DNA from: Somniosus microcephalus
Taxonomy: Eukaryota
Reading direction: 5' to 3'
Length of the DNA stretch: 64,000 bases
Assembly (NCBI GenBank): GCA_052327205.1
Contig: CM126203.1
Coordinates: forward strand, 341,620,001-341,684,000
Shown here: in pieces, positions 173-58,738 of the stretch
Layout of the letters: every line of letters starts with the position of its first letter
Position numbering within the stretch: the first letter of the stretch is position 1
Notes under the pieces: model-generated
Databases searched by the model: none
Told to the model about the DNA's origin: nothing
What the model saw: only the letters and a program-made list of their open reading frames with translations
Program-made: the position numbers and the translations under genes

Positions 173-2797
173 TTATAGATTCAGTCTTTGGGATGGCTTC
201 CTGACCCTTTCGGGATAGCGCCTTTCCAGAGGTTCTTGTTCTTGGTGCAGGGGCGATTCTGACCCCTTTTCATTGGGTAGTTCATCGGGTTCCACTGCTA
301 CTGGTTCTGAGGTAGATGCTACCGGTATGTCGGGTTCATCCCCAGGTACTCGAGACATGGGGTTGACGCGTTCCTGTGACGCTAAGATCTGATCGACGTG
401 GCGTCTAACAATGTTCTCCCCGACATCCACTGTGTACATTAATGGCCCCTGCCTTGTGCATATCATTCCGGGTTGCCATTTCTCTGTTCGATAGTCATGG
501 GCCAAGACTGGTTGCCCTACATTAAAGCTCCTTGTCGGCTTCTCATTGATGTGCTGGAATTGTTTGTCCTCAACATTTCTTCGCACATTTGGTCTGAGCA
601 AGTCCAGACGAGATCTCAACCTTCGGTTAAAGAACATCATGGCCGGGGTCTGGTTGGTAACTGCATGTGTCGCATTTCGGTAGGCTAATAATAAATTGTC
701 CATCTTATGCTGTAGTGGAATTTCATCATCGCACATGGCCTTTATCGCCTTCTTAAAGGTTTGTACGAACCTCTCAGCCAATCCATTTGTGGCTAGATGA
801 TACGGGACGGATGTGTAATGCCTTACCCCATTCCTTCTCATAAATTTTTGAAACTCGTCGGACACAAACTGTGGTCCATTATCAGAGCAAATCTGCTCTG
901 GCAAACCGTTTCTGGCAAATATGGTCCGTAGGACTGCAATCGTTTTCTCTGTAGTGGTTGAAGACATTTTTATCACCTCAGGCCACTTGGAATGAGCATC
1001 CACTGCTATTAAGAACATTGAGTCCATGAATGGACCAGCGAAATCAATATGCACCCGTTGCCATGGAGAGGAGGGCCACTCCCATGGGTGTAGAGGGGCA
1101 TGTGGTGGTGCATTTTGGACCCTCTGGCATCCCAAGCAGCTCTTAGTTAGGTCTTCGATTTGTTGATCGATTCCCGGCCACCACACATAAGCCCTAGCAA
1201 GGCTTTTCATTTTCACTCCCCCCAGATGACCTTTATGTAGCTCGTTTAGCACTCTCTCCCTTAACTTGGGTGGAATCACCACTCTGGATCCACACATCAC
1301 TGTCCCCTGGCATACTGACAGCTGTTCTCTTCTGGATGAGAATGCTGGCAACAGTAAGTCGCCATGTGTTGGCCATCCCCTCACCGTCAAATCATATACC
1401 CGAGACAGCGTCGGATCATTGCGGGTCTCCTTCTCTATATCCGCGTTCGTTACTGGCAATCGTTCAATTATTGACGAATAAAATATCTCGATAGGGTCCA
1501 CTGCTGGTGCTTCCTCCACAGTAGGTAGTGGCAGGCACGATAGCCCATCAGCGTTCCCATGCTGTTTCGTGCCTTTATATTCTATTTCATATTGATTCGC
1601 CCCTAGAAACAGGGACCATCTTTGTAACCGCTGTGCAGTCATCACTGGAACGCCCTTCTTAGGATTAAAGATGGAGACAAGTGGTTGGTGGTCAGTCAGC
1701 AAGGTGAACTTCTGCCCATGCAGATAGTGGTTGAATTTTTTTACTCCCCATACGAGGCTGAGGGCCTCCCTGTCAATCTGGGCGTAGTTGCGCTCGGCTG
1801 AGGTTAGTGACCGAGACGCAAAGGCTAATGGCCTCTCCAACCCGCCTGGGAATTTGTGCGACAGCACCGCTCCAATACCATAGGGTGATGCATCACATGC
1901 CAAACGAATTGGTAGTGCTGGGTTGAAATGGGCCAGCACCTCTTTTGATGTGATCAATTCTTTACACTTCTGGAAAGCTCGTCTACGTTCGTCACCCCAC
2001 TTCCATGGTACCCCTGTTTGCAGACGGGTGTTCAGTGGGTGTAATACCGTGGACAAATTTGGTAAGAACTTGTGGTAGTAGTTTACCAGCCCGAGGAACG
2101 ACCTCAGTTGTGACACATTTTCCGGTGCTGGAGCCTTGACTACTGCCTCAATCTTGTCAGGGGACTTATGTAACCCCTCTTCATCGATGACGTGGCCACA
2201 ATACGAGATCTGTTTCTGGAAAAACTCGCACTTGTGGCGATTAGCTCGTAGCCCATACTCCTTTAATCTGGTGAGCACCTTCTCCAATTTGGCGAGGTGA
2301 TCACCGTCATTTTCACCCGTGACCAAGATGTCGTCCAAATAACACTGGGTCCCTGGAATCCCTTGCAGGACCTGATCCATCGCCCTTTGCCAGATAGCCA
2401 GAGCCGAGGCTACTCCGAACACCAGCTGGTTGTATTGATAGAGACCTTTATGATTGTTAATCGTAAGGTATTGTTTCGAAGCTTCTTCTACCTCCATTTG
2501 CAAGTACGCCTGGGCTAGATCAATTTTGGTGAAGCGTTTACCACCAGATAGCGAGGCGAAAATATCCTCAATTCGTGGAAGCGGATATTGTACCGTGTGA
2601 AGGACTGGGTTCACTGTCACCTTAAAATCCCCACAGATGCGGACCTTCTTTGGTTCCCCAGGCATATTACTCAACGACCTCTTCATTACAGGAACGATGG
2701 GTGTAGCCCACTCGCTCCAGTCCACTTTGGACAGTACTCCTGAATGTTCCAACCCTTCCAGCTCTGCTTCAACAGCTAGTCTGATCGCATAAGGCAC
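173..2797 (-). CDS. pol: Gypsy A pol (RT-RNase H-integrase), open 874-aa portion
   Basis: Motifs WATPIVPV, YPLPRIED, YLDD, LACDAS..ERNYAQIDRE, H..H..C..C zinc finger, VHIDFAGP..SDNG..NGLAERFV. Confidence 0.95.
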   Translation of the reverse strand: MPYAIRLAVEAELEGLEHSGVLSKVDWSEWATPIVPVMKRSLSNMPGEPKKVRICGDFKVTVNPVLHTVQYPLPRIEDIFASLSGGKRFTKIDLAQAYLQMEVEEASKQYLTINNHKGLYQYNQLVFGVASALAIWQRAMDQVLQGIPGTQCYLDDILVTGENDGDHLAKLEKVLTRLKEYGLRANRHKCEFFQKQISYCGHVIDEEGLHKSPDKIEAVVKAPAPENVSQLRSFLGLVNYYHKFLPNLSTVLHPLNTRLQTGVPWKWGDERRRAFQKCKELITSKEVLAHFNPALPIRLACDASPYGIGAVLSHKFPGGLERPLAFASRSLTSAERNYAQIDREALSLVWGVKKFNHYLHGQKFTLLTDHQPLVSIFNPKKGVPVMTAQRLQRWSLFLGANQYEIEYKGTKQHGNADGLSCLPLPTVEEAPAVDPIEIFYSSIIERLPVTNADIEKETRNDPTLSRVYDLTVRGWPTHGDLLLPAFSSRREQLSVCQGTVMCGSRVVIPPKLRERVLNELHKGHLGGVKMKSLARAYVWWPGIDQQIEDLTKSCLGCQRVQNAPPHAPLHPWEWPSSPWQRVHIDFAGPFMDSMFLIAVDAHSKWPEVIKMSSTTTEKTIAVLRTIFARNGLPEQICSDNGPQFVSDEFQKFMRRNGVRHYTSVPYHLATNGLAERFVQTFKKAIKAMCDDEIPLQHKMDNLLLAYRNATHAVTNQTPAMMFFNRRLRSRLDLLRPNVRRNVEDKQFQHINEKPTRSFNVGQPVLAHDYRTEKWQPGMICTRQGPLMYTVDVGENIVRRHVDQILASQERVNPMSRVPGDEPDIPVASTSEPVAVEPDELPNEKGSESPLHQEQEPLERRYPERVRKPSQRLNL

Positions 2798-4119
2798 TGG
2801 CTGGCCTTAAGAAACTTTGGGCTTGCATTTTTCTCTATTTTAATCATTGCTGTTATGCCTTTTAGTGTTCCTAGTCCCTCCTGGAACACTTATTTTGCGT
2901 CAGTTAACATTTTTGACAGTCGTCCAGGTGTGACGTCATCATCCTTTTTGGCCTCAACCTTCAGTGCCTGTATGGAATGCCAATCTAATTGTATCTTCCG
3001 GATCAATTCACGTCCTAGCAGTGGTGGTCCTCCATCTGGCAATACATATATAACCATCTTAGGTATTTCCTGGCCTTTATATATCACTTTCACCCTTATT
3101 TTTCCTTTGGGGTAGACTTTTTGCCCCGTATACGTCTTCAAGACAATCTCTGTAGCTTTCAAGGGTATATGTGAAAATAGCCGCTTGTAGTCCCTTTGAT
3201 TTATGACTGTTAGGGCTGATCCTGTGTCCTATTCCATTTTCACTTGGACTCCGTCTATCTTGAGTGTAACCCAGATAGCCTGGTGATCCTCCATTTCGGT
3301 TACCTTATGTAGTTTCAGACAACCCAGCTCCTTGCTTCCGGAGTCTGTGTCAATTTTCTGTTCGTCTGAACCACTGTCCATCACCTGGTGTACCTTTTTG
3401 TACTTCTCCTGTGGAGATTTCTTACTGTTGGTTTTCTTCCCAGACCTGCAAACTCTTGCTATGTGTCCTGCTTTCCCACACTGTCTGCACACTTGGTCCT
3501 TGAACCAACAATCTTTCTGGTCATGTGTTGTTCTGCCGCAGCGATAGCACTTCCCTGTTCCATAGGACATTTCATTGGTGCCATATTTTTGCGGTCTCCG
3601 TTGTATCTCTGCAGCGCCCCTTGCGGCTGCTTCGTGTGATACTGCCATACTGAAAGCTTTGTCCAGCATAAGATCCTTTTCTGATAGAAGCCATTTCTGG
3701 GTTCCTTAACTTTGTAGCCCACACACAAACTTGTTCCTTAACATATCTGCTAGTCCCGCTCCAAACTGGCAGTGTTTTGATAGCTTGCGCAGTTCCGTTA
3801 GGTACTCAGCATTGCTTTTGTCTTTGTGTTGGTTCCTTTTATGGAACTTAAATCGTTCTGCTATCAGCAGCGGTGTGGGGTTTAAGTGGCCCTGTAGGAT
3901 TTCTACTATGCTTTCGAAATTCTTGTTCACCGGCTTCTCTGGGGTTATTAGATTTCGCAGTAACCCATAAGTTTTTGCACCCATGGGATTTAACAAAACC
4001 AGTGCTTTATTAGCATCTGGCACTTCATTCGCCCTGCAGTACACCTCAATGCGTTCCACATATGTCGCCCAATCTTCGACTTCATTGTCGAACGTAGAGA
4101 TACTGCCACTCTTCGGCAT
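2798..4119 (-). pseudogene. gag: Gypsy A gag-protease, disrupted
   Basis: ORFs 3706-4143, 3229-3669 and 2890-3162 share one frame and are separated by stops; 1-nt frameshift near 2805. Knuckles CYRCGRTTHDQKDC and CRQCGKAGHIARVC; protease site ME*DTGS. Confidence 0.9.
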
Positions 4120-4142
4120 CCCTGGGTGTGAGTTAACTGTCA

Positions 4143-4320
4143 AAAATGGCGTCTCCCGCGCTTCCCCTTCTTCTCAGCTGGCACAAAATGGCGTCTCCCG
4201 CGCTTTCCTTCCTTCCCGCGCTCGCCCTTCTTCTCCGCTGCGGTTTCTAAAAATGGCGTCTCCCAGGCTCTTCCTTCTTCTCCGTGGCTCAATGGCGTCT
4301 CCCGCACTCTCCCTTCTTCT
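4143..4320. repeat. Four imperfect ~45-60 bp repeats in the Gypsy A leader
   Basis: Core AATGGCGTCTCCC..CCTTCTTCTC recurs near 4143, 4186, 4250 and 4291. Confidence 0.85.
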
Positions 4321-4776
4321 CCCCGTGGACCCTGTTCAGCCCTTGAGCCCTGGCTGTGCTCTGCGCGTTCTTCTTTTTTTTTAAATTTTATTTATTTTTT
4401 CACGACGCCGCTCGGTCTTGAACCCGGCTGTTTCTTTACCCTCTCTCTCTCTCCGGTTTGTTTTCTTTTTCTCGACGCCACTTGGTGTTCAACCCCGGCT
4501 GCGCCCTGCGCGCTTCAACCTCTGTCTTACCCCGTCGACGCTGCTCGGCTTTCTCTCCGCCGTCGGTCGGCTCCAGCCACCGCTGCTCGGGAAGGGTCTG
4601 CGCTGGACCTGTCGTCAGTCTCTTGCTGATCGTCGTGGCTGGGGAACCAAGCCCGGCTCTCCACAGCCTCCCCTGCGATGTTCACTCTCTGCCTGACGAC
4701 TGGGCGGTTGCTCGTGGTCGACGCCCGTGCTCCTGGCCTCGACTTTTTTTTTGTTGCAGGTAGATTCGAATCGACA

Positions 4777-4786
4777 CTCGTCGCCA
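4777..4786 (-). promoter_or_regulatory. Primer-binding site, tRNA-Ser(GCU)-like
   Basis: Minus strand reads TGGCGACGAG 1 nt after the LTR, complementary to the 3' end of vertebrate tRNA-Ser(GCU) (..CTCGTCGCCA). Confidence 0.8.
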
Positions 4787-4787
4787 C

Positions 4788-4998
4788 TGTTAGATCCGTG
4801 ATTCTGAGGATATGCTGTTATTCAATAATCACACGGATGCTGTAAATTAACAATAAACAGGTCTTTACTGGAGGAGGGTAGTCTCAAGACTGGGGATACA
4901 GAGGCATGCGCAAAGCTTATATACAGGTGTGGTCACTGCCGGTACTACAGTATACAGGAGCTGTAAAGTAGTTCTGACTTAAAGGCACATACACTACA
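4788..4998 (-). repeat. 5' LTR of Gypsy A (211 bp)
   Basis: Minus strand runs TGTAGTGT..TCTAACA and contains a TATATAA box. Confidence 0.95.
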
Positions 4999-6014: not shown

Positions 6015-6363
6015 TATTGGTGAAAGATTGGGGAATGCAGATGTTCAAAGGGACCTGGGTTTCCTTGTCCTTGTCCATGAATCACTGAAAGTGAATGTGC
6101 AGGTGCAGCAAGTCATTAGGAAGGCAAATGGTATGCTGGCCTTCATTACAAGAGGATTGGAGTACTGGAGTAAAGAAGTCTTACTCCAATTATATAGGGC
6201 CTTGGTGAGACCACACCTGGAGTACTGTGTAGAATTTTGGTCTCCTTCCCTAAGGAAGGATATACTTGCCATAGAGGGTGTGCAACGAAGGTTCATGAGA
6301 TTGATTCCTGGGATGGCGGGACTGTCGTATGAGAAGAGATTGAGTAAACTAGGCCTGTATTCT
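6015..6363 (+). mobile_element. CR1 LINE 3' fragment, left part (split by Gypsy B)
   Basis: ORF2 C-terminus RDLG..KANGMLAFI..LVRPHLEYC..LGLYS; continues at 10423. Confidence 0.9.
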
Positions 6364-6593
6364 TGTGATGAAATAACTGTGTTCTGATATTTGTACTTGT
6401 ACTTGTAATGTCTGGAATGTTCCACCGGGGGAAATCACTAATGCTCCTCCCTGGCCCCGCCCCTCTTCTGGTATGTTCTACCAAGGGCTCGGTCGATGAT
6501 GAACTCTGTTAACTCTGCCATGATTCTTACTTAATAAAAGCCTTCAGTCTTAAACTTTAACTTCACGGATTCGGGCAGTTATTTGGCACATCA
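6364..6593 (+). repeat. 5' LTR of Gypsy B (230 bp)
   Basis: TGTGATG..CACATCA; AATAAA at 6533-6538. Confidence 0.97.
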
Positions 6594-6620
6594 ATTTTAT
6601 TAAGTAACAACTTTTGGAAG

Positions 6621-9600
6621 ATGGATCGATTTTTGAAACCAGAGCGTCTGGATATCGATCCGCATTCGGCAGACGCGTCGAAGAAATTTACGCATTGGCT
6701 ACGATGTTTTGAACACTTCATCGCATCGTTCGATTCGCCGGTTAACAAGTTGGGTCTTCTAACCAACTTGGTAAGTCATCAAACTTACTCTATAATTGAA
6801 GATATTACTACATATGAAGAGGCCCTCGCAGCTCTTAAAGCCCAGTACCTTAAGTCGGTTAACGAAGTATACGCCAGGTATCTCCTGTCTACTCGCAGGC
6901 AGTTACCCGAGGAATCTCTGGACGATTTCCTGCAGGTCCTTAAGGCTTTGGCTAAGGGTTGCAACTACAAGGCTGTCTCTGCCATAGTGTATCAGGAAGA
7001 AGCCATCCGCGATTCTTTCGTATCTGGCCTCCGATCTAATTATATTAGACAGAGACTCCTCGAGAACGACTCGTTAGTTTTAAAAACGGTCGTCGCTGCT
7101 GCTCGATCGTTAGATGTAGCCCAGAAGAATTCAGAAGTGTATGCATCAGCCCATGCATCTCTCTCAGCCTCGTGTGTTCCGAGTATGGAGGCATCCATAA
7201 CACCAATGGAGCCCCCACTTAATCCTATTGTTGCGGCTGTGCCCCATGGGTCTAAGTGTTATTTTTGTGGCCAATCTAAACACCCCAGGCAAAGTTGCCC
7301 AGCCAGAGAGGCTACCTGTTTTAAATGTAAGAAACGGGGACATTTTAGTAAAGTGTGTAAGGGTAATCCTGTACCCGAGGTCTTCTCTGCTGCCGCCTAT
7401 CGTTTTACTTTAGCCTCGGCTACGGTTGACCAGACCATACCGTGTTCCTTGTCAAAATCTATGATGGACATCAAGATTAATGGTCGTCCTACTGGGTGTT
7501 TGATAGACTGTGGCAGTACTGAAAGTTTTATACACCCTAACCTTGTTAACTCCTGTTCATTGAAGGTGTATCCTACTCGAAGTGAAATTGTGATGGCGTC
7601 CAAATCCTTTACTTCGAAGGTAACTGGATATTGTAAAGTCACATATACTCCGTATCCTTAATGGTCAAAGGACTTTAAACTCCTCATATTACCTCAGTTG
7701 TGTGTGAACTTAATATTAGGCTTGGACTTCCAGTGTCAGCATGAGAGCGTTACCCTTAAGTATGGTGGATCTCAGCCTCCACTCACAGTCTGCGGCCTTT
7801 CTACTTTAAACGTAAGTCCGCCTTCTTTGTTTGCGAACCTTGCTCCTAATTGTAGACCTATAGCGACTAAGAGTCGACGGTATAGTTCAGAAGATAAAAC
7901 ATTTATAAAAGAGGAAGTGGAAAGGCTTCAACGGGAGGGAATCATCGAACACAGTGGTAGCCCGTGGCGTGCCCAGGTGGTGGTGGTTAAAACTAATGAG
8001 AAGAAAAGACTTGTGGTCGATTATAGCCAGACTATAAACTTGTATACCCAATTAGACGCCTATCCTTTGCCTCGTATTTCTGAGATGGTGAACCAGATAA
8101 CTCAGTACCGCGTGTTCTCCACCATTGATTTAAAGTCTGCCTACCATCAACTCCCCATCAAAATAGAAGACCGACCTTATACGGCCTTCGAAGCTAATGG
8201 GCGCCTGTACCAATTCCTTCGGGTGCCCTTTGGAGTGACGAATGGGGTATCCGTCTTCCAACGGGAGATGGATCGTATGGTGGATGAATACGTGTTGGAA
8301 GCAACATTCCTGTACCTGGACAATGTTACCATCTGTGGGCGTGACCAACGGGAGCATGATCAAAATCTCGCGAAGTTCCTAGAGACTGCAAAGAGGTTAA
8401 ACCTGACCTACAACGAAAACAAGTGTACCTTCAATACTACACGTTTGTGTATCCTTGGTTGCGTTGTGGAGAATGGGGTAATTGGGCCAGATCCTGAAAG
8501 ATTACGCTCACTTAAGGAATTACCTTTACCTCACACTGTAAAAGCTTTAAGAAGGTGTCTGGGATTCTTCTCGTACTATGCCCAGTGGGTGGCTAGCTAC
8601 TCAGATAAAGTCCGACCTCTTAGTAAGTCGACGTCTTTTCCGCTATCGGCGGAAGCTCAGGAGGCTTTCCTTAATATCAAACGGGACATTAAGAAGGCAG
8701 TGGTATGTGCTGTGGATGAGAAGATCCCTTTTCAAGTGGAAAGTGATGCATCTGATTTTGCGTTGGCAGCAACTCTTAACCAAGCTGGTAGACCAGTAGC
8801 TTTCTTCTCTCGTACATTGCAAGGACCAGAAGTTCGACATTCTTCAGTGGAAAAGGAGGCACAGGCGATCATCGAAGCAGTCAGGTATTGGAGACATTAT
8901 CTCGCTGGCCAACGTTTTACGCTCATTACTGACCAGCGATCCGTGGCCTTTATGTTCAACACTAAGCAGAGAGGCAAGATCAAAAATGATAAGATTTTAA
9001 GATGGCGAATAGAACTGTCAACATATGACTATAATATTCAGTACAGGCCTGGAGTATTTAATGAGCCATCGGATGCTTTGTCACGAGGAGTATGTGCTAG
9101 TCTAGGTGCAGATAAGCTTCAAAGTCTCCATGACGCACTCTGCCACCCTGGGGTTACCAGAATGAACCACTTCATTAAGTCCCACAATCTACCCTACTCT
9201 ATTGAGGAGGTCCGGACAATGACCAGAACCTGTCATGTTTGTGCTGAATGCAAACCCCGCTTCTATAAGCCGTCCGAGCCAGCTCATCTTATTAAAGCAA
9301 CTCGACCATTTGAGCGTTTGAGTCTCGATTTTAAAGGTCCCCTTCCATCGAGCGACCGTAATGTCTATTTTCTTAATATTATAGACGAGTACTCTCGGTT
9401 CCCTTTTGTTATCCCCTGTCCGGATGTGACTAGTGCTGTTGTAATTAAATGCCTCTGCCAACTGTTTTCCTTGTTCGGCATGCCTAACTATATACATAGT
9501 GATGGGGTTCTTCCTTTATGAGCGAAGAATTACGACAGTTTTTGCTATCGAAGGGGATTGCAACGAGTAGAACTACCAGCTATAACCCTCATGGTAATGG

Positions 9601-10177
9601 GCAGGTCGAGAAAGAAAATGCAACAGTGTGGAAGGCTATCGTACTGTCTCTGAAGTCACGAGGCCTGCCGACCTCTCGCTGGCAGGATGTCCTGCCAGAT
9701 GTGCTGCATTCCATAAGGTCTCTTTTGTGTACAGCGACGAATGCCACCCCTCATGAAAGGATGTTTAGTTTTCCTAGAAAAGCTACTAATGGAGTATCGT
9801 TACCCACATGGTTGGCGACCACGGGCCCTGTGTTGTTGCGCAGACATGTGAGAGGCCACAAGACTGATCCACTGGTGGAGGAAGTACAACTCCTCCATGC
9901 TAATCCCCAGTATGCGTATATTCAATATTCGGATGGGCGAGAGGATACGGTCTCTATTAAAGATCTTGCACCTGCTGGAGCTCGAAAAGAGTTCGACTCT
10001 GAGAGTAGAGTTTTCAATCATGGTATTGGGCCTTCAGAGACACAAACCCTCAGTGTGGAAAATACTGATGATTCTGGGAATTCGAATGAACCGGAGTTAG
10101 TACTCCGGGAGGAGCCTCAGCAAGAGTTACCTCATTCCCAGAGGATTATCAGACCTCCTGACAGACTGAATCTATAG
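6621..10177 (+). pseudogene. gag-pol: Gypsy B gag-pol with lesions near 7650 and 9503
   Basis: Two CCHC knuckles, protease LIDCGS, RT YLDN, RNase H ESDASD, integrase SLDFKGP..HSD..NGQVE. Stop at 7659-7661; 1-nt deletion in D(R)GSSF. Confidence 0.93.
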
Positions 10178-10188
10178 CAGGGGGTGAA

Positions 10189-10417
10189 TGTGATGAAATA
10201 ACTGTGTTCTGATATTTGTACTTGTACTTGTAATGTCTGGAATGTTCCACCGGGGGAATCACTAATGCTCCTCCCTGGCCCCGCCCCTCTTCTGGTATGT
10301 TCTACCAAGGGCTCGGTCGATGATGAACTCTGTTAACTCTGCCATGATTCTTACTTAATAAAAGCCTTCAGTCTTAAACTTTAACTTCACGGATTCGGGC
10401 AGTTATTTGGCACATCA
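10189..10417 (+). repeat. 3' LTR of Gypsy B (229 bp)
   Basis: Direct repeat of 6364-6593. Confidence 0.97.
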
Positions 10418-10422
10418 ATTCT

Positions 10423-31164: not shown

Positions 31165-34100
31165 TGTTGTGTATTTTGAATGTGTATTTTGAATGTGTAT
31201 TAGAATTGTCCCACATGGGATACCGTAGTGGTGATTTGCAATGCACTATGGGAAATGTAGTGCATTGAGTGAAGAAGCACATTGTAAATAAAATGGCCGT
31301 TAACTAAACTCTCCACCCCGGAGTCCTTCTTAATTGTTATATAGGTAAGGGTATAAAACCCCTTGAGACACAACAAAACTGGCGACGAGGACGACGGACT
31401 TGCGCATCACTTTGCACTGGAATCGGCGATGTTTAAAGTAAGAAGTTCCTGTCTTTTCTTAATGGCGCGCCCGCAGTTTCGTGCTGATGCAATCGCCTCG
31501 TAAAGGTGGCGGTTCGTGTGTTACACAAATAAGAAGGGGGAGAGTAACAATACAGTGAAACGAAGTGGAGGAAAAGGACTGTAAAAAAAAAAGTGAATGC
31601 GGCGTCAGTCGAAGAGGCGGGGCTAGCGGCAGTGTTGACAAAGCATGCGGCTGTCTTTGACAGAGAATTGGGGAGTATGAAGGGGATTACGGTCAAACTC
31701 AAGGTGAAGCCTGAAAGCCAGCCATGATTCCTGAAGGCCAGGAACGTTCCCTACGCCCTCAGACCAAAGGTGGAGGTTGACCTGGAGCGTCTGGTCAAGA
31801 TAGGGGTCCTGGTGCCGGTTTCGCACAGTGAGTGGGCCACGCCCATGGTACCAGTGATGAAGAGTGATGGCACGGTTCGCTTATGTGGAGATTTTAAAGT
31901 AACAGTGAATCCTGTGCTCTCAGCTGAACAGTACCCCCTCCCCATCATTGAAGATCTTTTCGCGGGTCTAGCAGGCGGTCAGAAGTTTAGCAAGATTGAT
32001 CTATGCCAAGCCTACTTGCAGATGCATGTAGAAGAGGACTCACAGAAGTACCTCACCATCACCACCCACAAGGGCCTCTACAGGTACTGCCGCCTACCCT
32101 TTGGTATAACGTCAGCACCAGCATTGTTTCAGCGGGCTATGGACCAGATCTTAAGCGGCATTCCAGGGGTACAATGTTATCTCGATGATATCCTTGTCAC
32201 AGGAAAGGACAACAACGAGCATCTGCAGAACCTGACGAAGACACTGGGACGACTTGAAGAATATGGCTTACGCGTTCGCAAGGACAAATGCGAATTTTTC
32301 AAGCCATCAGTGGAGGCCATGTCATCGACGCGGACAGCCTACACACAGCACCGTCGAAAGTGAAAGCCATTGCCGATGCTCCTGCAACTACAAATGTCGG
32401 CCAGCTGCGGTCATTCTTAGGTCTCCTAAACTATTACGGAAAGTTTATTCCACAGCTGGCATCACTGTTGAAGCCATTACATGAGTTGCTGTGTCAGGGC
32501 AAGGCCTGGGCGTGGACGAAGGAGTGCGAAGCTGCATTCAAGAAAGCCAAAGCAGCTTTGACTGACCCCAGAGTGTTGACGCACTTTGACCCGTCGTTGC
32601 AGATTCAGCTGGCCTGTGACGCGTCGCCTTATGGCGTCGGCGCGGTCGTGTCCCACATCTTTCCCTCAGGCGAAGAGAAGCCGATTGCATTCGCGTCAAG
32701 GTCCCTGAGCAAGGCGGAGGTGAAATACCCGCAGATCGAAAAAGAGGCTTTGGGCATCATCTTTGGAATCAAAAAGTTCCATCACTACTTGTTCAGAAGG
32801 AAATTCACCTTGCTGACGGATCATCGTCCTCTGACATCGATCTTTGGTCCACACACAGGAATACCCTCCCTGGCAGCGTGCAGGATGCAGCGCTGGGCGC
32901 TGATGTTAAGCGCTCACAATTACAACATCAAATACCGGAGGTCAGCAGCACATGGCAATGCGGACGGATTGTCAAGACTTCTGCTGCCTGTGCCCTCTGA
33001 AGGCTGTGAGCAGAAGATTTTCTACTTTGACATGGTGAGCAATGCCCCTGTCACGGCCCGGCAGGTCAAGAAAGAGACCAGAGTGGACCCTACGCTATCC
33101 AAGGTGCTGGATCGGGTGATGTGAGGAGACGGATCACGGGTGTCAGATGCACCACCTGAGCTCCTACCTTACCTGTCAAGAGGGAAGGAGTTGTCTGTCT
33201 TGTCAGGATGCCTCCTTTGGGACATGCGAGTGATCATACCACCAAAGCTGCGGAAACATGTCCTCAACGAGCTGCACTCAGGACATTGTGGTATTGTCCG
33301 GATGAAGGAGCTGGCACGAAGCTACTTCTGGTGGCCCGGTCTGGATCATGAAATTGAAGTTGAAGCGAAATCATGCCCATCATGCAAGACAACCAGGGAT
33401 ACGCCAAGAGCAGCGCCACTGCATCCATGGGAATGGCCGGCGACACCGTGGCAACGGATCCATCTGGACTTCGCGGGACCAGTGGAAGGAGCGATGTTCC
33501 TGGTCGCGGTGGACTCCCATTCCAAATGGCCGGAGGTTGCAATAATGTCCACTACCACTACGGAGAAAACCATCGAGACTCTGAGAGAGATGTTCGGGCG
33601 ATTTGGTCTGCCGGAGCATATCGTAACCGACAATGGAACACAGTTCACATCCCAGGAGATGGAAGAGTTCCTCAAGAGCAATGGAATCCAGCACACGTTC
33701 TCCGCGCCTTGTCATCCATCCACGAATGGATTGGCGGAGAGATTTGTCAGAACGCTGAAACGCGCGTTGAAAGCGGCAAGAAGTGATGCTCCTCTAAAGC
33801 AGCGCCTGAATGCTTTCTTGCTGAAATACCGAAACACGCCTCATGCTACGACTGGAGCATCTCCTGCTTCCCTACTCATGGGAAGGCAGCTACGGGCACG
33901 CCTTGACCTGCTGAGGCCAACGTCCACAGAAGCAGTGGTGCACGCCAATCAGCAGGATCAAGTCAGCAGACGAGCTCAGAGGTCCAAAGAACGACACTTT
34001 GTGGTGGGCGGCAAAGTCCTCACGCGTAACTACACCACCCCGGAGCGGTGGGTCCCGGCTACGGTCATTCAAAAGACGGGCCCCGTTTCATACTGAGTCC

Positions 34101-34710
34101 GCACCGGAGACAACCGAACATGGAGATGGCATGTAGACCAGTTACTGCCAAGACAGTCGCCACAGGTAACCCAAGAAACAGAGGATCAAGGACCTGCTGG
34201 GGGCTCCCGCAGGGACTGGTCGTCCGACCCTGAGACGGTGGCACCATCCACTCTTGTGCCATCGAGGGAGGAAGCCACGCCTGCAGGGTCACGGGAGAGC
34301 CAGCCAGAGCCTGTTCCTGAGACTAGGCGTTACCCCCAAAGAGAAAGGCAGCCTCCAGAGCGCCTTAGTTACAGTTAGTGCTAACCTGTGTGCATGGGCA
34401 GAATAACCCCAGGGTTAGCGGAATGTAAAGGCAGTCTACCCTCTCTTCCAAAGTTATAGTCATTTTCAGTTATTCTGTTTTGTGGACATTCTATTTTAAG
34501 GGGGAGGAAATATGTTGTGTATTTTGAATGTGTATTAGAATTGTCCCACATGGGATACCGTAGTTGTAATTTGCAATGCACTATGGGAAATGTAGTGCAT
34601 TGAGTGAAGAAGCACATTGTAAATAAAATGGCCATTAACTAAACTCTCCACCCCAGAGTCCTTCTTAATTGTTATATAGGTAAGGGTATAAAACCCCTTG
34701 AGACACAACA
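31165..34710 (+). mobile_element. Ty3/Gypsy LTR retrotransposon C (Mag-like), gag-protease deleted
   Basis: LTRs 31165-31375 and 34513-34710 (4 substitutions plus a 13-bp duplication). TSD GATAG. PBS TGGCGACGAGGA at 31380. PPT AAGGGGGAGGAAA. Confidence 0.96.
31596..34378 (+). pseudogene. pol: Gypsy C pol (RT-RNase H-integrase) with several stops and a frameshift
   Basis: WATPMVPV, YLDD, LACDAS, IHLDFAGP, TDNG, NGLAERFV. TGA near 31725, 33122 and 34094; frameshift near 32315. Confidence 0.93.
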
Positions 34711-38314: not shown

Positions 38315-41300
38315 TGTGATGAAATATTCATCATCATCACTGCCTGTGACTGAGATCAGTTTCAGTGCCATTTCCCTTCCCCCAGACCTCATTGTATTGT
38401 GTACTGGAATGTGCTGTATTGTATACTGGAATGTGCTGGAATGTGCTGTGTGTAGGGCTCCGCCCATACCTGGCCCCGTTTGTAGGCTGGCTCAGTCTGG
38501 CCTCAGCCTCCAGAAGGAAGACATCTCTCTCGCTTACGTGTTATGTTCTAAGTTAATAAAAGCCTTGTTTTGTTCTGCTAACTTCGAGACTCGGAATTAT
38601 TGAGGCACATCAATTTTATTAACTTATTTTTCAACACTATGGATCAACTCCTGAAACCCGAACGTTTGGATTTGGATCAACATGCTCCGGACGCATCAGC
38701 ACGCTTCGGACACTGGTTTGAGTGTATGGAATTCTTCCTGGACAATTCCGCAGCTGTCAAAGACGCTACGGACGCTGCGAGGATGAGACTCGGAATTCTG
38801 CGGAATTGGGTAAGCCACCGGGTTTACCCCCTCATCCAAGACGCCGAGACGTACCTGGCCGCCTGCGACATCTTAAAGGCGCATTACCAGCAGCCTACGA
38901 ATGAGGTGTATGCTAGGCACCTGCTCGCTACCCGCGCACAGCGACCTGGGGAATCGGTGGAGGAGTTCCTAAGCACCCTGAAAATGCTTGGCAAAGACTG
39001 CAAGTGCCGAGATGTAAAAGCCGCAGTGTACACTGACGAGCTTGTTCGCGATGCCTTCATCACAGGGCTCAGCTCCACTTACATCCGGCAAAGACTGCTG
39101 GAAAAAACGGGGTTGGACCTGAAACAGGCTGCGGACACCGCGCGATCCCTGGATGTGGCCCAGAGAAACTCGGACGCCTACTCTTCAGCCCGCGCCATCC
39201 ACGCCGCCACGTGTGCACCGAGGGCGCCGCCATCTTGGAAGGCATCTTCCCCGCCTGACAGCCCGACACTGGCTGGGCCCCGCTCTCCCCCCAGAAGCCC
39301 TACGACAGCCGCGACGTGTCAGGGACCCAACTGCTACTTCTGCGGGCAGCCAAAGCACACCAGAAACCTGTGCCCGGCGAAAGGCACCACCTGCTTTAAG
39401 TGCGGTAATTAGGGGCACTTCGGGAAGGTGTGCAGAGGGAACTCCGCCGGAAAACCAACCGCCGGAAAACCCGCCACCGCCGCGTGTGCGCCGTGGGAGC
39501 GGCCATCTTGGACGCCATCTTGCCCGACCTCGTGGGGTCCGCCATCTTGTGAGCAGACAGCGTGGACGCCATCTTGTATCGATCAGGGCCCTACAGTGGC
39601 ATCGGTCACAGTGGACCAGACCAGGCCGCACCCGCTATCCAGATCAATGGTGGACATCGAGGTAAACGGGTGCCGGGTTAAATGCTTAATTGACAGTGGA
39701 AGCACGGAGAGCTTTATCCACCCAGAACTGGCACAACAACTCTCCCTAAAGGTGGTCCCTACTCAGGGTACCATCTCTATGGCTGACAAAACCCAGACAT
39801 CGACCATTCTGGGTTACTGCACGGTACAATTGTGCGTTAACGGAACTGTATATGATAATTTTAAAGTATTAATCATGAAGAACCTATGTGCGAGCGTGAT
39901 CTTGGGCCTGGATTTCCAGTGCAACCACCAAAGCATCACGCTCAAGTACGGTGGGTCCCAGCCGCCCCTCACAGTGTGCGGTCTGGCTACCCTGAAGGTA
40001 AAGCCGCCTTCGCTATTCGCGAACCTTACCCCTAACTGCCGGCCAATAGCGACCAAAAGCAGGAGGTACAGCTGGGAGGACAGGCGGTTTATTGCGACCG
40101 AGGTAGACAGGCTCCTGAAAGAGCGCATTATTGAACGCAGCAACAGCCCGTGGCGTGCCCAAGTGGTAGTGGTAAGGGGTAGCGAGAAGAGACGGATGGT
40201 GATCGACTATAGTCAAATGATCAACAGGTACACCCTACTAGACGCCTACCCACTACCCCGCATATCAGAAATGGTGAACCAAATCGCCCAATACCGGGTG
40301 TTCTCCACCATCGACCTCAAGTCAGCGTACCACCAGCTCCCTATCAGACCAGAGGACCGCCCGTACACCGCCTTCGAGGCGAACGGACGCCTCTACCAAT
40401 TCCTCAGAGTCCCCTTTGGGGTGACGAATGGGGTCTCGGTCTTCCAGAGGGAGATGGACCTCATGGTCGATGACCACCACTTGCAGGCAACCTTCCCCTA
40501 CCTCGACAACGTCACCATCTGCGGCCACAATCAGCAGGATCACGACTCGAACCTCGAGAGGTTCCTGGAAACCGCACAAAAACTCAACCTCACCTACAAC
40601 GAGGACAAGTGCGTTTACAACACCACGCGCCTCTGCATACTAGGCAGCGTGGTGGAGAATGGGGAAATCGGACCAGACCCCGACCGATTGCGCCCCCTAC
40701 GGGAGCTGCCCCTGCCCAACACTCCCAAAGCCCCGAAAAGGTGCCTGGGGTTATTTTCTTATTATTCCCAATGGGTCCCCAACTACTCCGACAAAGCCCG
40801 CCCCCTCTTGAAAGCATCCTCTTTCCCGCTCTCTGCTGAGGCCCACGCCGCCTTCAAAAGCATTAAGCAGGATATTGAGCGGGCCACGCTACAGGCAGTG
40901 GACGAGAACACTCCATTTCAAGTGGAAAGTGATGCGTCTGACTTTGCCTTGGCGGCCACCCTCAACCAGGCGGGGCGGCCCGTAGCTTTCTTCTCGAGGA
41001 CCCTCCAAGGGCCCGAGATCAGACACTCCTCCGTGGAAAAGGAGGCCCAAGCCATCGTGGAGGCAGTGCGCCACTGGCGCCACTACCTAGCCGGCAAACG
41101 CTTCACCCTACTTACTGACCAGCGGTCGGTAGCGTTTATGTTCAATAATAAACAGAGGGGGAAGATTAAAAATGATAAGATTCTTAGGTGGCGGATCGAG
41201 CTCTCCACCTTCGAGTACGACATCATTTACCGGCCAGGGGCCCTTAACGAATCCCCTGACGCCCTCTCACGAGGGATGTGTGCCAGCGCCACCGGGGATC

Positions 41301-42720
41301 GGCTACAGACCCTCCACAACAACCTCTGCCACCCAGGGGTCACGCGGCTGTTCCACTTCATAAAGTCCCGTAACTTACCCTACTTGATTGAGGAAGTTCG
41401 GTCCCTGACCAGGAACTGCCGCACTTGCGCTGAGTGCAAGCCTCAGTTCTACCGCCCAGATAGAGCCCACTTAATCAAAGCTACACGGCCCTTTGAGCGG
41501 CTCAGCTTAGATTTCAAGGGCCCCCTCCCGTCCGTCGACCGCAATGTTTACTTCCTGAACATTGTGGACGAATACTCCCGGTTCCCATTCGCCTTCCCCT
41601 GCCCAGACATGACCAGCGCCACGGTCATTAAATGCCTCAACAGCCTGTTCTGCCTGTTCAGTATGCCGAGCTACATCCATACGGATAGGGGGGCGTCCTT
41701 CATGAGTGAAGAGCTACGCCAGTACATGCTGTCCAGGGGGATCGCCACGAGCCGTACCACCAGCTACAACCCCCGGGGTAACGGCCAAGTGGAACGAGAG
41801 AACGGGACAGTATGGAAAGCAGTCACTCTAGCTCTAAGGACCAAGGGCCTCCCTATCTCCCGCTGGCAGGAAGTCCTCTCGGATGTGCTCCATTCGATAC
41901 GGTCGCTATTGTGTACGGCCACTAATACCACGCCCCATGAACGAATGTTTGTCTTCCCCCGGAAATCCACCTCAGGCGTATCCATGCCGTCATGGCTCTC
42001 CACCCCAGGTCCGGTACTCGTGCGAAGGCATGTGAGGGGCCACAAGATGGACCCTCTCGTGGAGCCAGTACACCTACTCCACGCCAACCCCCAATACGCA
42101 TATGTCCGGCACGCCGACGGAAGGGAGGACACCGTGTCCATAAAAGACGTCGCCCCAGCCGGCATCGACAACAACCACGGCAATAGCGGCAACGACGATC
42201 ACAGCAACTCTTACCCACCCATTACTTTTTCATCACCCCCGGAAGAACACCGACCAACGGCACCCCCACCAACTACCCTTTCAACAACCCTGGCGGCACC
42301 CCCGGCAGAGACCCAGGAGGCTACCGGGGACACCCAGCCGACACCCGCGGCACCGCAACAGCCACGTCGGTCGCAGAGGACTATCAAACCCCCGAACAGA
42401 CTAAATCTATAGAAGGGGTGAATGTGATGAAATATTCATCATCATCACTGCCTGTGACTGAGATCGGTTTCAGTGCCATTTCCCTTCCCCCAGACCTCAT
42501 TGTATTGTGTACTGGAATGTGCTGTATTGTATACTGGAATGTGCTGGAATGTGCTGTGTGTAGGGCTCCGCCCATACCTGGCCCCGTTTGTAGGCTGGCT
42601 CAGTCTGGCCTCAGCCTCCAGAAGGAAGACATCTCTCTCGCTTACGTGTTACGTTCTAAGTTAACAAAAGCCTTGTTTTGTTCTGCTAACTTCGAGACTC
42701 GGAATTATTGAGGCACATCA
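38315..42720 (+). mobile_element. Ty3/Gypsy LTR retrotransposon D (same lineage as B; no tRNA PBS)
   Basis: 298-bp LTRs 38315-38612 and 42423-42720 with 3 substitutions. TSD GGTAT. PPT AGAAGGGGTGAA. Confidence 0.98.
38639..42412 (+). pseudogene. gag-pol: Gypsy D single-frame gag-pol with one nonsense codon (39410-39412)
   Basis: ORFs 38600-39412 and 39428-42412 are in frame; the stop lies inside the knuckle CFKCGN*GHFGKVC. LIDSGS, YLDN, ESDASD and integrase DDE motifs are intact. Confidence 0.95.
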
Positions 42721-45053: not shown

Positions 45054-48000
45054 TGTTGAGATACCGCGGCAAACGTGGGAGTCGAGACCAGAGCTATTGA
45101 AAACACAACTACTTTATTCCAACCACATGACAAACAGGAACGAGAAAAGCCCGCGCGTCCACTTAAATACTTCCCAGACAGGAAGTGCTCCCGGCAGCCT
45201 GTCCCTGCGGGAAACAAGTTGCTGGAGGAAAGGGCCCCCGGCTGGGGGCTTCTGCTTAGACTGTCTGTGCCGCCGTGAGCGGATTATGTCCAGTGGTGGC
45301 GTGTCGCCACAGAGCTCCCCCCAGAATCCGCTTAGGAGGAGTGGACGAGTCGTGACGGTGGTCTAATGGTTCTGCCGCAGCGGCTCTGAGTGGTCACCGG
45401 TCTGGTTGGTTGGGTCGGGCGGTTCGCCACCGGCTGTGCTGGCTTGCCGGGGGGACGGCCTCTAGTTGGAGGCTGGGCCACGGGGACCTGTTCCCCTGGT
45501 TCTGTGTGCGCTGGTTTGAGCCGGTCGATGGAGACTGTCTCGACCCTGTCGCCGAGTCGCAGCTTGAAGACCTTGTCCCCGGTTTGTAGTACCTCATACG
45601 GACCGTCGTACGGGGGTCGCAGGGGCCCGCGGTGCGCGTCGTGTCGCACGAAGACGAAGCGCGCCTGCTGTAAATTTGGCGGGACGTGAGGTGCGAGTTC
45701 GCCGTGTCGGTTGACCGGAAGTGGGGCGAACTGCTGAGCGGAAGAGAAAGAGTCGAGCTGCTGCTGTTCGGCCGACCAAGGCTTGGTAGGCTCCGGAAGG
45801 AATTCGCCTGGGACGCGCAGCGGTTGTCCGTAGACTAACTCCGCTGCCGAGGACTGGAGGTCTTCCTTGACCGCGGTGCGTAGGCCGAGTAGCACCCACG
45901 GTAGGCGGTCAGTCCAGGTACTGTCCTGCAGGCCGGCGCGGAGTGAGGCCTTGCGTGACCTGTGGAAGCGTTCACAAAGTCCGTTGGCCTGCGGGTGGTA
46001 CGCCGTGGTGCGGTGGAGCATCACCCCGAGGTTGCGTGCTGTGGCCGTCCAGAGTTCGGAGGTGAACTGGGCGCCTCTGTCGGAGGTTATGTCGGCCGGT
46101 ACACCGAACCTCGCAACCCAGGTGTTAACGAACGCCCTGGCGATGTGGGCTGTGGTGGTGGAGGTCAGCGGCACTGCCTCAGGCCAGCGTGTGTAGCGGT
46201 CGACCATCGTGAGGAGATAAGTTTGGCCTTGCGATGGCGGCAGGGGACCGACGATGTCGACGTGTACGTGGTCGAAGCGGCGGCTGGGTACCTCGAAGTC
46301 TCCCAGGGGTGCTTTGGTGTGCAGCTGTACCTTAGCCCGTTGGCAGGCGAGGCAGGAGGTGGCCCAAGTCCGAACATCTCTGCTGAGGCCGCGCCAGACG
46401 AAGCGCTTGAAGAGGAGTTTGACGGATGCGCGGGAACCCGGGTGAGAGAGCCCGTGGAGCGCATCGAAGACGCGGCGGCGCCAGGTCTCAGGGACGACCG
46501 GCCTGGGTTGGCCGAGTGAGACGTCGCACGTGACTGCCGTGGCTTCGGGCCCGTGCGCAACCTTGGCTAGGCGTAGCCCTGGCAGGCTGGTAGCCGCCGA
46601 GAGGAGGTCTGGGTCCGTGAGCTGGGCCGCTGCTAGTTGTGCGTAGTCGACCGCGAGGTGATTCGCACAGACGGCGGGACGGGAAAGGCAGTCGGCGACC
46701 ACGTTGTCTCTACCGGAGACGTGCTGAATGTTTTTAGTAAACTCGGAGACGGCCGCGAGCTGGCGTTGCTGCCTAGCGGACCAGGGTTTGGTGTGCTTGG
46801 CCATCGCGTATGTGAGTGGCTTGTGGTCCACATACGCAGTGAAGGGGCGGCCTTCCAGGAGGAACCTGAAATGGCGGACCGACAGGTGGAGTGCGAGAAG
46901 CTCGCGGTCGAAAGTGGAGTATTTGACCTCGGGGGGCGCAGTTGGCGGCTGTAGAAGGCAAGTGGCTGCCACGCGCCATTGACCCACTGCTCGAACACGG
47001 CCCCGACCGCGTGGTCGGAGGCGTCGGTGGTGAGCGCGACCCGGGCATCGGCCCTCGGGTGCGCGAGCAGAGTGGCGTCGGCGAGCGCGTTTTTGGTGGC
47101 GTCGAAGGCGGCTGCTGTGTCAGTGGTCCAGGCTACGTCCATCTTGCCGGATTTTCCTCGGAGGGAGTCGTATAGGGGCTTCATGAGGGCTGCGGCTCTG
47201 GGGATGAACCTGTTGTAGAAGTTCACCATCCCGAGGAACTCCTGGAGGCCCTTGATGGTTGTGGGGCGGGGGAATTGCTGGACGGCCTGCACCTTGTTGG
47301 GCAGGGGGACGGCCCCAGCAGGGGTGATGTGGTGACCGAGAAAATCGATCTCGGTTAGGCCGAATTGGCACTTCGCCGGGCTGAGGATGAGCCCGTGTTG
47401 GGCTAGGCGCCCGAACAGGATGCGAAGGTGTTCGAGGTGTTCCTGTTTGGAGGAGCTGGCCACGAGAATGTCGTCTAGATAGACGAATAGGAAGTTCAGG
47501 TCCCGGAGGACTGAGTCCATAAGGCGCTGGAAAGCCTGTGCTGCATTCTTGAGGCCGAAGGGCATCCTCAGGAACTCGAACAGGCCGAATGGGGTGATGA
47601 CGGCCGTTTTGGGGATGTCCGCGGGGTGTACGCGGACTTGGTGGTAACCGCGCACCAGGTCGACTTTGGAAAAGACGGTTCGTCCGGCCAGTCGGGCCGA
47701 GAAGTCCTGGATGTGTGGCACCGGGTATCGATCGGGGGTGGTGGCGTCGTTGAGGCGGCGGTAGTCCCCGCAAGGGCGCCAGCCTCCGCCGGGCTTGGGG
47801 GCGATGTGGAGGGGCGAGGCCCAAGGGCTGCTGGAGCGGCGGATGATGCCGAGTTGTTCCATGTTGGTGAACTCGGCCCGCGCGATTTCCAGCTTGGCCG
47901 GGTTGAGTCTGCGGGCGTGGGCAGAAACTGGGGGGCCGGTGGTGGGGATATAGTGTTCCACACCGTGCTTGGCAGCTTTGGCCGAAAAGGTCGGGTTAGT

Positions 48001-49409
48001 GAGGGCAGGAAACTCAGCTAGGAGTGCCGAGTAGTCGTCCGTGGCTCTGGCGAGGCAGTAGGTCGTCAGGCCAGCCGAACGGGCCGGGGTAAAGGCGCCG
48101 GGGATGGGGGCCATAGTGTTGATGTCAACGAGGCAGTGCCTCGGAATGTCGACAAGGAGGCCGTGGGCACGTAGGAAGTCGGCGCCGATGAGTGGGCAGA
48201 GGACCTTGGCTGTGAGGAACTCCCAGCGGTAGCGGCGGCCCGCGAGGTCGAGCGTGACCATGCGGGTGCCATATGTGCGGATTTCAGAGCCGTTGGCTGC
48301 AGCCAGTGTGATACCCCGTGTGCCGTGTTGGATCTCGAGGGCGGAGGCGGGGGTGATGCTGTGCTGGGCCCCTGTGTCGCACAGAAATCGGCGGTTGGTT
48401 CTGTCGTCAGTGACGTACAGTATGGGCTCCTTCTGCCCCGCGGCCATCGCGGGGGCCGGTGCGGGGGGGGGGGGGGGTTTGAAGGAACACGGTGGCGTGC
48501 AGCGTTGAGCCCTAGCGCCAAAACGGGTGTGGTAGTAGCAGTGACCCGGAGTGGTAGGGCGGTCGGGCCTAGCGGCCCGGGAAGACCGCGTGGTCGTTGC
48601 CGTGAGGTCGGGCGCGACGTCGCGAGCGGCCTGTGCAGAGAGCAGCCGGTCGGCCTTTTCGGCTATATCATTCAGGTCCGTGGAGTCAGACTCCACAATG
48701 AGCGGGCGGATGCTGGCGGGGAGCTGCCGAATGAAAAGCGTGCGAAAAAGGGCGCCGGGATTTTTGTCGTCTGAGAGGGACAGCATGTGGGAAAGCAGGT
48801 CTGATGGTGAAGCGTCACCAAGGCCGGGGAGGTCCAGGAGTTGGCAGTGGCGCTGGTAAGAGGACGTTTGAAATTTTTTAAGTAGCGCAGCCTTCAGATG
48901 TTCGTACTTGCCCTCCGTTGGTGGATTCTGCAGCGCTGCCCAAACCTTGGGGACTGTAGCGTAGGTGAGCGAGGCGACGAGGTAGTCGTACTTCGTGGCG
49001 TCGACTGTAATGCCTTTCAGCCGGAATCGGGACTCAGCTTGAACGAACCAGGCTTCGGCGAGGTTCTCCCAAAAGTCTGGTAATTTAACCGTGACTGCGT
49101 TTGTATCCGCCATGCTAGCTTAGGATTCGTCCTGAGCGTCGGGGTCACCAGTGTTGAGATACCGCGGCAAACGTGGGAGTCGAGACCAGAGCTATTGAAA
49201 ACACAACTACTTTATTCCAACCACATGACAAACAGGAACTAGAAAAGCCCGCGCATCCACTTAAATACTTCCCAGACAGGAAGTGCTCCCGGCAGCCTGT
49301 CCCTGTGGGAAACAAGTTGCTGGAGGAAAGGGCCCCCGGCTGGGGGCTTCTGCTTAGACTGTCTGTGCCGCCGTGAGCGGATTATGTCCAGTGGTGGCGT
49401 GTCGCCACA
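45054..49409 (-). mobile_element. Ty3/Gypsy LTR retrotransposon E, CsRn1 clade
   Basis: 258-bp LTRs 45054-45311 and 49152-49409 with 3 substitutions. 4-bp TSD AGAC. PBS TGGTGACCCCGACG (tRNA-Trp) at 49137-49150. CHCC gag motif CYYH..C...C. PPT at ~45312-45323. Confidence 0.97.
45332..49113 (-). CDS. gag-pol: CsRn1 gag-pol, intact except for a 1-nt frameshift at the G6 run 46931-46936
   Basis: LCDTGA protease, WASPLH..RPCGDYR, YLDD, TTDASD, HVDIVGP..TSDRG..ANGLCERFHR. Adding one C restores RQLRPPEVKYSTFDRELL. Confidence 0.93.
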
Positions 49410-57875: not shown

Positions 57876-58056
57876 ATCATGAACCTGCTTCCTTAATTGC
57901 TCCCCCGTTTCCTTCACGAGGGAGCTTTAGACAGAGGCTCGGCATCCCTTGCTACTGCAAGCACCAGGCTGCTTCCTCTGACACAGCAGCCATCCTGAGA
58001 CAAGGGTCACCTGAGGTCTATAAGGCTCCAGGGAACCATCTCAGCCTTCCACCATT

Positions 58057-58738
58057 CATAGAAACATAGAAGATAGGAGCAGGAGTAGGCCATTTGGCCC
58101 CTCGCACCTGCTCTGCCATTCAATGCGATCATGGCTGATCATCCAAATTCAGTACCCCGTCCCTGCTTTCTCCCCATACCCCTTGATCCCTTTAGCCTTA
58201 AGAAATATATCCAACTCCTTCTTGAATATATTTCATGAATTGGCCTCTACTGCCTTCTGTGGTAGAGAATTCCATAGGTTCACCACTCTCTGGGTGAAGA
58301 AATTCCTCCTCATTTCTGTCCGAAATGGCTTACCCCTTATCCTTAGACTGTGACCCCTGGTTCTGGATGCCCCCGCCATCGGGAACATCCTTCCTGCATC
58401 TAGTCTGTCCAGTCCTGTCAGAATTTTAAGTTTCAATGAGATCCCCTCTCATTCTTCTAAACTCCAGCGAGTATAAGCCAAATCGACCCAATCTCTCCTG
58501 ATACGTCATTCCTGCCATCCCAGGTATCAGCCTGGTGAATCTTCACTGAACTCCTTCCATGGCAAGAACATCCTTCCTCAGATAAGGCGACCAAAACTGC
58601 ACACAATACTCGGATGTGGTCTCACCAAGGCCCTGTACAACTGCAGCAAGACATCCTTGTTCCTGTACTCAAAGCCTCTCGCTACGAAGGCCAACATACC
58701 ATTTGCCTTCTTAACCGCCTGCTGCACCTGCATGCTTA
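58057..58738 (-). mobile_element. CR1 3' fragment, same subfamily as 55064-57875
   Basis: Near-identical to 55064-55748. Confidence 0.92.

Follow-up and report, generated by a model that had tools for sequence, protein, structure and literature searches.

A Ty3/Gypsy element of Somniosus microcephalus with a primer-binding site complementary to its own LTR points to self-priming

Element B is a Ty3/Gypsy LTR retrotransposon at positions 6364-10417 of the window, i.e. the 64-kb stretch of Somniosus microcephalus DNA analysed here. Our data are best explained if B is a recent copy from a lineage of Ty3/Gypsy elements that is widespread in animals and whose primer-binding site (PBS) pairs with the element's own LTR and not with a tRNA. 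This pairing is a real trait of the whole clade. We consider it highly probable that B, and likely its clade, self-primes in some form; the best reading for B, which we hold to be probable, is a Tf1-like priming with the 5' end of its RNA.

Structure of element B and complementarity between LTR and leader

B combines the traits of a Ty3/Gypsy element, i.e. TG...CA LTRs, a flanking 5-bp target-site duplication (TSD), a polypurine tract and the order gag-PR-RT-RH-IN (Table 1), and its best match in the PDB is Ty3 Gag-Pol (E 2e-53). The insertion is young, as its LTRs differ by a single 1-nt indel. Near-identical copies are numerous, the best 40 LTR-gag matches being 99% identical. This copy is broken: a stop within the protease (7659-7661) ends the gag frame, and the integrase reading frame shifts at about 9503-9521; many relatives have one ORF of about 1180-1230 aa. 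The catalytic residues D-E-D-D of RNase H are present.

The RT catalytic motif reads YLDN both in B and in D, which represents another family of B's clade within the window (D frame 39413-42412). Among 145 homologs the motif is YxDN in 104 and YxDD in 32, with another motif or none found in 9, and the Tf1-type controls of the same genome have YLDD. As reported in PMC2148107, Ty1 with the same substitution (D211N) no longer transposes, and kpol is 223-fold lower; the YxDN families are young and abundant despite this effect.

The leader segment 6595-6607 of B is the perfect reverse complement of 6527-6539 within the 5' LTR, hereafter the arm, and this is the longest complement between LTR and leader. 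None of 5000 dinucleotide shuffles of the B LTR reaches 12 nt or more, the best being 11 nt (in 5 shuffles). The whole leader measures 27 nt (6594-6620), and its sole TGG lies at 6615-6617, with none adjoining the LTR. The earlier note, which had described a self-complementary 13-mer in place of a tRNA PBS, is thus borne out. RNA folding predicts a pairing probability of 0.94 for the arm. The published criterion for self-priming in PMC6317226 is an LTR complementarity of at least 10 bp that begins 0-5 bp behind the LTR; B has 13 nt at offset 1. The 1-nt offset recurs in most relatives with both LTRs and in a chromovirus control.

At the same place D carries a 13-bp duplex with two compensatory changes relative to B. 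The LTRs of D are 99% identical, with one substitution in the arm of the 3' LTR; the element has one stop at 39410-39412, and its RT-RH segment is 80% identical to that of B.

Ordinary tRNA PBSs had also been claimed for elements A, C and E of the window. This holds for C and E, which have TGG-initiated sites 0-4 nt beyond their LTRs; A has a TGG site at 4786 (-), but our script found no LTR pair for it. Element C (31181-34710, +) and element A (about 173-4800, -) have a TGG-type PBS in common, which we take to be of tRNA-Ser type, and both are presumably Mag-like. In element E (45054-49409, -) the gag carries DUF7041 and the PBS is of TGG type, presumably for tRNA-Trp; we take this element to be CsRn1-like. 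The region 55065-58611 is a duplicated LINE-like RT region and no LTR element with a PBS.

Table 1. Features of elements B and D, in coordinates of the window
Feature	Position	Strand	Remark
Left target-site duplication of B, ATTCT	6359-6363	+	
5' LTR of B, TG...CA, 230 bp	6364-6593	+	matches 3' LTR except one 1-nt indel
Predicted RNA 5' end of B	6526-6529	+	inferred start site
LTR arm of B, 13 nt, predicted self-primer	6527-6539	+	exact complement of 6595-6607; covariation
AATAAA inside B arm, likely poly(A) signal (candidate)	6533-6538	+	sequence
Remaining R plus U5 of B, putative fold-back loop	6540-6593	+	inference; predicted fold
Spacer A, 1 nt, between LTR end of B and paired site	6594	+	
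Predicted PBS of B, self-complementary, without TGG	6595-6607	+	sequence
gag of B, two CCHC knuckles, plus protease start	6621-7661	+	ORF, Pfam
Protease remainder, RT, RNase H, first part of integrase of B	7662-9521	+	
RT catalytic motif of B, YLDN in place of YxDD	8313-8324	+	
Integrase remainder of B, other frame	9503-10177	+	frameshift in this copy; no Pfam match
Polypurine tract of B	10176-10188	+	
3' LTR of B	10189-10417	+	second arm copy at 10351-10363
Right target-site duplication of B, ATTCT	10418-10422	+	
Element D, second family of B's clade	38315-42720		LTRs 38315-38612 and 42423-42720
LTR arm of D	38549-38561	+	2/13 positions differ from B arm
Predicted self-complementary PBS of D	38614-38626	+	both differences from B compensated

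Conservation and covariation of the pairing

The 6.4-Gb genome of origin was searched by exact patterns. At the pair 6530/6604, C occurs with G in 831 matches and with A in 8, while T occurs with A or G in 317, the partner being A in 94 of the 100 listed (read by eye). Mismatched forms thus amount to about 1%, which fits decay after insertion. The two B/D-type partner changes are also seen in reads and contigs of related samples; for a minor PBS variant at 6605 (5 reads of one run) there is no partner change among the variants listed.

Two gag-start patterns matched 11,655 and 5,173 places in the genome, which overlap, and a reversed control matched none. From the start of contig C1 we analysed 58 distinct loci, picked by their gag start and blind to LTR and PBS. 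With the register taken as the best of 40 positions, 46 of the 58 copies pair at 13/13 positions; position 14 pairs in 6, and no copy has a TGG at up to 8 nt from the LTR end. Pairing is perfect in each of the 10 haplotypes present in at least two of these copies, and the 12 imperfect ones are all single-copy.

We then characterized the pairing across families. A metagenome scan gave 80 loci, of which 29 with a gag start were inspected and 23 were used; added to elements B and D and to the 58 loci of the genome, they give a set of 83 candidates. Because automatic LTR ends are unreliable in several loci (wrong or absent in L046, L047, L051, L056, L062, L078, L080, L081, L102, L208 and L250), a motif anchor was used, and the register in the family analysis was fixed by the A/T run alone. 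The anchor rule removed 13 of the 83 candidates, including L070, L079, L081, L101 and L102, whose pairing is broken or imperfect. The remaining 70 fall into 21 families at 85% gag identity, 13 from the genome itself and 8 from metagenome contigs.

Watson-Crick pairing in the 21 families lies between 0.90 and 1.00 at positions 1-13 and is 0.38 at position 14. At positions 5-13, 182 of 189 cells pair, compared with a mean of 122 and a maximum of 148 in 20000 permutations of arms and sites, although the families share ancestry and some share one arm, so that the cells are not independent and do not represent 21 separate tests. Seven D-family copies were mis-anchored in this analysis and pair 13/13 in direct checks. 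Transversion-type compensation is found between close subfamilies (L058 vs L060). The earlier note had held that a pairing absent from the family consensus would speak against its proposal; the pairing is kept across the family.

In every one of the 21 families the arm closes with a run of A. In 15 of them, B included, it contains AATAAA or ATTAAA as read by eye; one of the six arms without a hexamer (L179) belongs to a degenerate copy. Arm positions 11-8 are best conserved (A in 18, G in 20, T in 17 and T in 15 of 21). These positions, 6529-6532 in the window, resemble an initiator element, and only the B family has C at position 10. Many arms of the genome itself are preceded by TC, which presumably resembles a TCT-type start.

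Seven loci of the genome (L211, L213, L214, L215, L226, L239 and L247), which belong to a single branch of the clade, have a leader of about 80-100 nt compared with the usual length of about 25 nt, and keep the 13-bp duplex. Matches that recur at constant intervals of 3751 and 4110 bases (G000:C2:130917189-130928522; G000:C1:101244406-101252657), suggest tandem arrays of clade elements that share LTRs.

Proposed priming mechanism and rival explanations

Minus-strand synthesis begins next to the end of U5, which fixes the position of the primer (PMC5006619). In B a primer must thus anneal at about 6595, and across the families only the element's own arm tracks this site, which makes self-priming the best reading. 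The earlier proposal that B self-primes is thereby supported indirectly, by a pairing that is kept, covaries, lies at the primer site and stops sharply at 13 bp.

In Tf1-like priming of B, the RNA would start at or just before the arm (6526-6529, with priming-competent RNAs at about 6527), and its first 13 nt would fold back to pair with the site that follows U5 after a 1-nt spacer. The RNase H of the element would, by analogy with Tf1, cut near 6539|6540 at the 3' end of the arm, and the RT would extend the freed 3'-OH through U5 and the remaining R, with 6540-6593 as the predicted template of minus-strand strong-stop DNA. The AATAAA in the arm would be hidden by the fold-back in the 5' copy and active in the 3' copy. 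Poly(A) sites lie about 10-30 nt beyond the hexamer, and an RNA that ends there would retain a short R overlap for strand transfer. Plus-strand synthesis would then copy the primer into a new PBS. Such copying would explain how arm and PBS can change at once, with no mismatched intermediate being replicated. It fits the missing mismatched haplotypes better than two selected mutations do, though selection alone is a possible explanation as well. The overlap with a putative poly(A) signal in 15 of 21 families suggests a second function that could help to hold the pairing.

The sharp edge of the pairing at 13 bp argues, indirectly, for an RNA 5' end at the arm. Pol II transcripts do not usually start with a U, and the A at 6529, shared by 18 of 21 arms, resembles an initiator more closely; positions 12-13 pair nonetheless. 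We considered an 11-nt primer from A6529, as in Tf1, and rejected it as the leading interpretation, since covariation extends to position 12 (0.90 for own and 0.38 for crossed partners). In two raw RNA runs of a related sample, reads map to both strands and the best-supported rows contain no start cluster at 6526-6529; RNA libraries of that kind need not show one. The matches listed from the same two runs include no poly(A) loose ends, and a search for retroposed poly(A)-ended copies gave one place, which was not recognised as a family member.

The main rival keeps the arm as the primer and changes its source: the self-primer would come from the arm of the 3' LTR (10351-10363), in cis or on a second packaged RNA, or would be cut from a longer RNA started upstream. 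The arm indeed occurs in both LTRs, its A-run end is found in 21 of 21 families, and it adjoins the poly(A) signal near the 3' end of the RNA; all covariation data are compatible with this source. However, an internal or 3' primer gives no evident reason for a fixed 5' edge, and the pairing stops sharply at 13 bp (from 0.90 to 0.38 in the families, with 6 of 58 copies pairing at position 14). Moreover, no retroposed poly(A)-ended family member was found to locate the 3' end. We therefore regard this origin of the primer as rather improbable. Retroviral poly(A) hairpins mask the signal of the 5' LTR, and the duplex of B might do the same while something else primes. The hexamers within 15 of 21 arms, that of B included, favour such masking, but the six arms without either hexamer (L179 among them being degenerate) are anchored alike, and the 3' strand always begins 1 nt past the LTR end, where any primer binds. 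Furthermore, there is no alternative PBS (0 of 58 copies with a TGG), and masking alone offers no route to the transversion-type compensations between L058 and L060. Masking is thus more likely a second job of the duplex than its sole one, and as a complete explanation it is unlikely.

Annealing of a host tRNA fragment or another small RNA to 6595-6607, with an incidental match in the LTR, has a precedent in the half-tRNA primers of Ty1/copia lineages described in PMC6317226. Yet the site varies among families and subfamilies (10 repeated haplotypes among the 58 copies), always tracks its own LTR rather than a fixed host sequence, and offers no TGG for a CCA end. Covariation in the sequences thus appears to disfavour a host RNA strongly, and we consider it very unlikely. 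A chance AT-rich inverted repeat or a quirk of a single copy might be suspected from the composition of the B arm, in which 12 of 13 positions are A or T. This explanation is refuted by the shuffles, the whole-genome counts and the covariation in 21 families and 58 copies, and its probability is negligible. Self-priming with the RNA 5' end remains our preferred reading.

Relation to chromoviruses and other lineages, and implications

The earlier note had stated that B does not look like a sushi chromovirus, and domains and trees agree with it. No Chromo or SH3_Tf2-1 Pfam match (E<=0.01) was found in B, D or the homologs P0006, P0033 and P0016, and as the integrase remainder of B has no Pfam match it holds no recognisable chromodomain or SH3_Tf2-1. 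The control L159 matches SH3_Tf2-1 with E 1.5e-22 and Chromo with E 7e-5, under its cut-off. RT-RH segments were obtained from 91 rows, of which 37 were used for an LG+G4 tree and 18 for a mixture-model tree, chosen to span the diversity. Both trees, which are unrooted and have Tf1, sushi, SURL and Cigr-1 outside them (with a long-branch warning on the 37-row tree), recover three groups: B's clade (100/100), the self-complementary chromodomain elements together with the tRNA-primed element E (99/96), and the Mag-like rows. Monophyly of B's clade with the chromodomain elements is rejected with p-AU 0.021 (18 rows, unrooted; the hypothesis stems from the earlier note, and the LG+G4 tree had been seen beforehand). 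RT-RH identity to B is 29-30% for chromovirus controls and 27-31% for tRNA-primed elements.

By sequence criteria B would work like Tf1, yet it appears to be no member of the Tf1/sushi chromoviruses. Of the independent origin considered in the earlier note, the separation from the chromodomain elements is upheld (AU p 0.021); the tree is unrooted and without Tf1, sushi and Cigr-1, and so is compatible either with two gains or with an ancient self-priming state followed by repeated losses. Hairpin priming has been proposed as ancestral in PMC3601003. A separate origin of the sequence-predicted self-priming in B's clade is plausible but unproven.

Tf1 and Tf2 of Schizosaccharomyces pombe and Tj1 of S. 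japonicus resemble B in that they have no tRNA PBS, in the site behind the 5' LTR that matches, as its complement, a part of the LTR preceding U5, and in an RT with RNase H catalytic residues (PMC7175516, PMC4600332, PMC5341516). Tf1 pairs its first 11 bases with the PBS, and the RNase H cut falls between bases 11 and 12 (PMC7175516). In contrast to these elements, the duplex of B has 13 bp compared with 11, the arm in its clade usually holds a poly(A) hexamer, and B has no chromodomain or SH3_Tf2-1 match. A conserved second helix directly past the arm was tried as a candidate and rejected: in 12 of 21 families, B not among them, it scores above their own shuffles, and B's clade thus differs from Tf1/Tf2/Tj1 in having no such general helix. 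Start, cut and priming are demonstrated for Tf1, while those of B are predicted from sequence.

Five of eight SH3_Tf2-1 elements of the same genome (L159, L161, L162, L164 and L165, e.g. L159:2113-7767) have an 11-nt self-complementary site with a 1-nt spacer. Of the other three, two are without an LTR pair, and one, for which the LTR end was misplaced, has 6 nt. From their domains we infer that the five are of the vertebrate Tf1/sushi type. They share with B the self-complementary PBS and the spacer, whereas their arm is 11 nt long and lies about 160 nt from the LTR end, compared with 13 nt and 54 nt in B. Thus two seemingly unrelated self-complementary lineages appear to coexist in the Somniosus microcephalus genome.

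The closest named proteins to B come from rays and sharks. Named homologs, known from protein alone and not from their PBS, occur in Hypanus, Narcine, Scyliorhinus, Mobula, Actinostola and Oculina, and further in Trichuris, Trichinella, Penaeus, Pycnogonum and Ischnura. Viral contigs gave no match to the gag queries and one distant Mag-like element (L126). Judged by marker description and sizes, B's clade may be the Cigr-1 clade. The LTRs of Cigr-1 presumably measure 245 bp, its single ORF about 1210 aa, and its gag is SURL-like, all of which resembles B's clade. The markers in the GyDB row of PMC2774666 are two CCHC arrays, ILG, a lost GPY/F, no chromodomain and no env; B fits them, but the set is shared by Osvaldo and is thus not unique to the Cigr-1 clade. 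The clade, founded by Cigr-1 of Ciona intestinalis, is also described from molluscs and annelids (PMC6238403, PMC8556966). Searches for clade-naming motifs in the supplements of PMC6238403, PMC2774666 and PMC8556966 found no sequence.

Like B, the Mag lineage has short LTRs; the gag of B weakly matches Mag-like (K02A2.6-type) proteins, and the central branch of the trees does not separate the Mag-like rows from B's clade. However, the A, B and C clades of Mag are described with tRNA-Leu or tRNA-Ser primers (PMC3286476) while 0 of 58 copies of B's clade have a TGG, and B's clade is a separate 100/100 group with 27-31% RT-RH identity to the Mag-like rows. In plants, self-priming is predicted in PMC6317226 for the Ty1/copia TAR lineage (Houba, Osr-1) and for Tcn1 chromoviruses, which belong to another lineage or superfamily than B; with TAR, self-priming outside chromoviruses has thus already been proposed (PMC6317226). 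The full-text literature searched, which did not extend to Repbase, Dfam and GyDB pages, contains no description of self-priming or of the PBS in B's clade.

Self-priming has been shown for Tf1 of fission yeast, and its chromovirus relatives and a copia lineage of plants are the other predicted cases. If B's clade self-primes as well, the mechanism would operate in a separate lineage that occurs in cartilaginous fishes, cnidarians, nematodes and arthropods and accounts for at least 11,655 gag starts in the Somniosus microcephalus genome alone. Tentatively, we can picture a large and old, animal-wide Gypsy lineage, mostly with a YxDN RT, that may have invented self-priming apart from Tf1/sushi; one 13-nt segment might act as start, primer and masked poly(A) signal, and the PBS might be rewritten in each cycle, its two strands drifting together near-neutrally. 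Natural matched variants of arm and PBS make the mechanism directly testable. Annotation tools that require a tRNA PBS would under-call the clade. tRNA fragments that target the PBS silence elements (PMC7472051), and such silencing would miss B's clade. More generally, the finding bears on whether tRNA priming or self-priming arose first in LTR elements.
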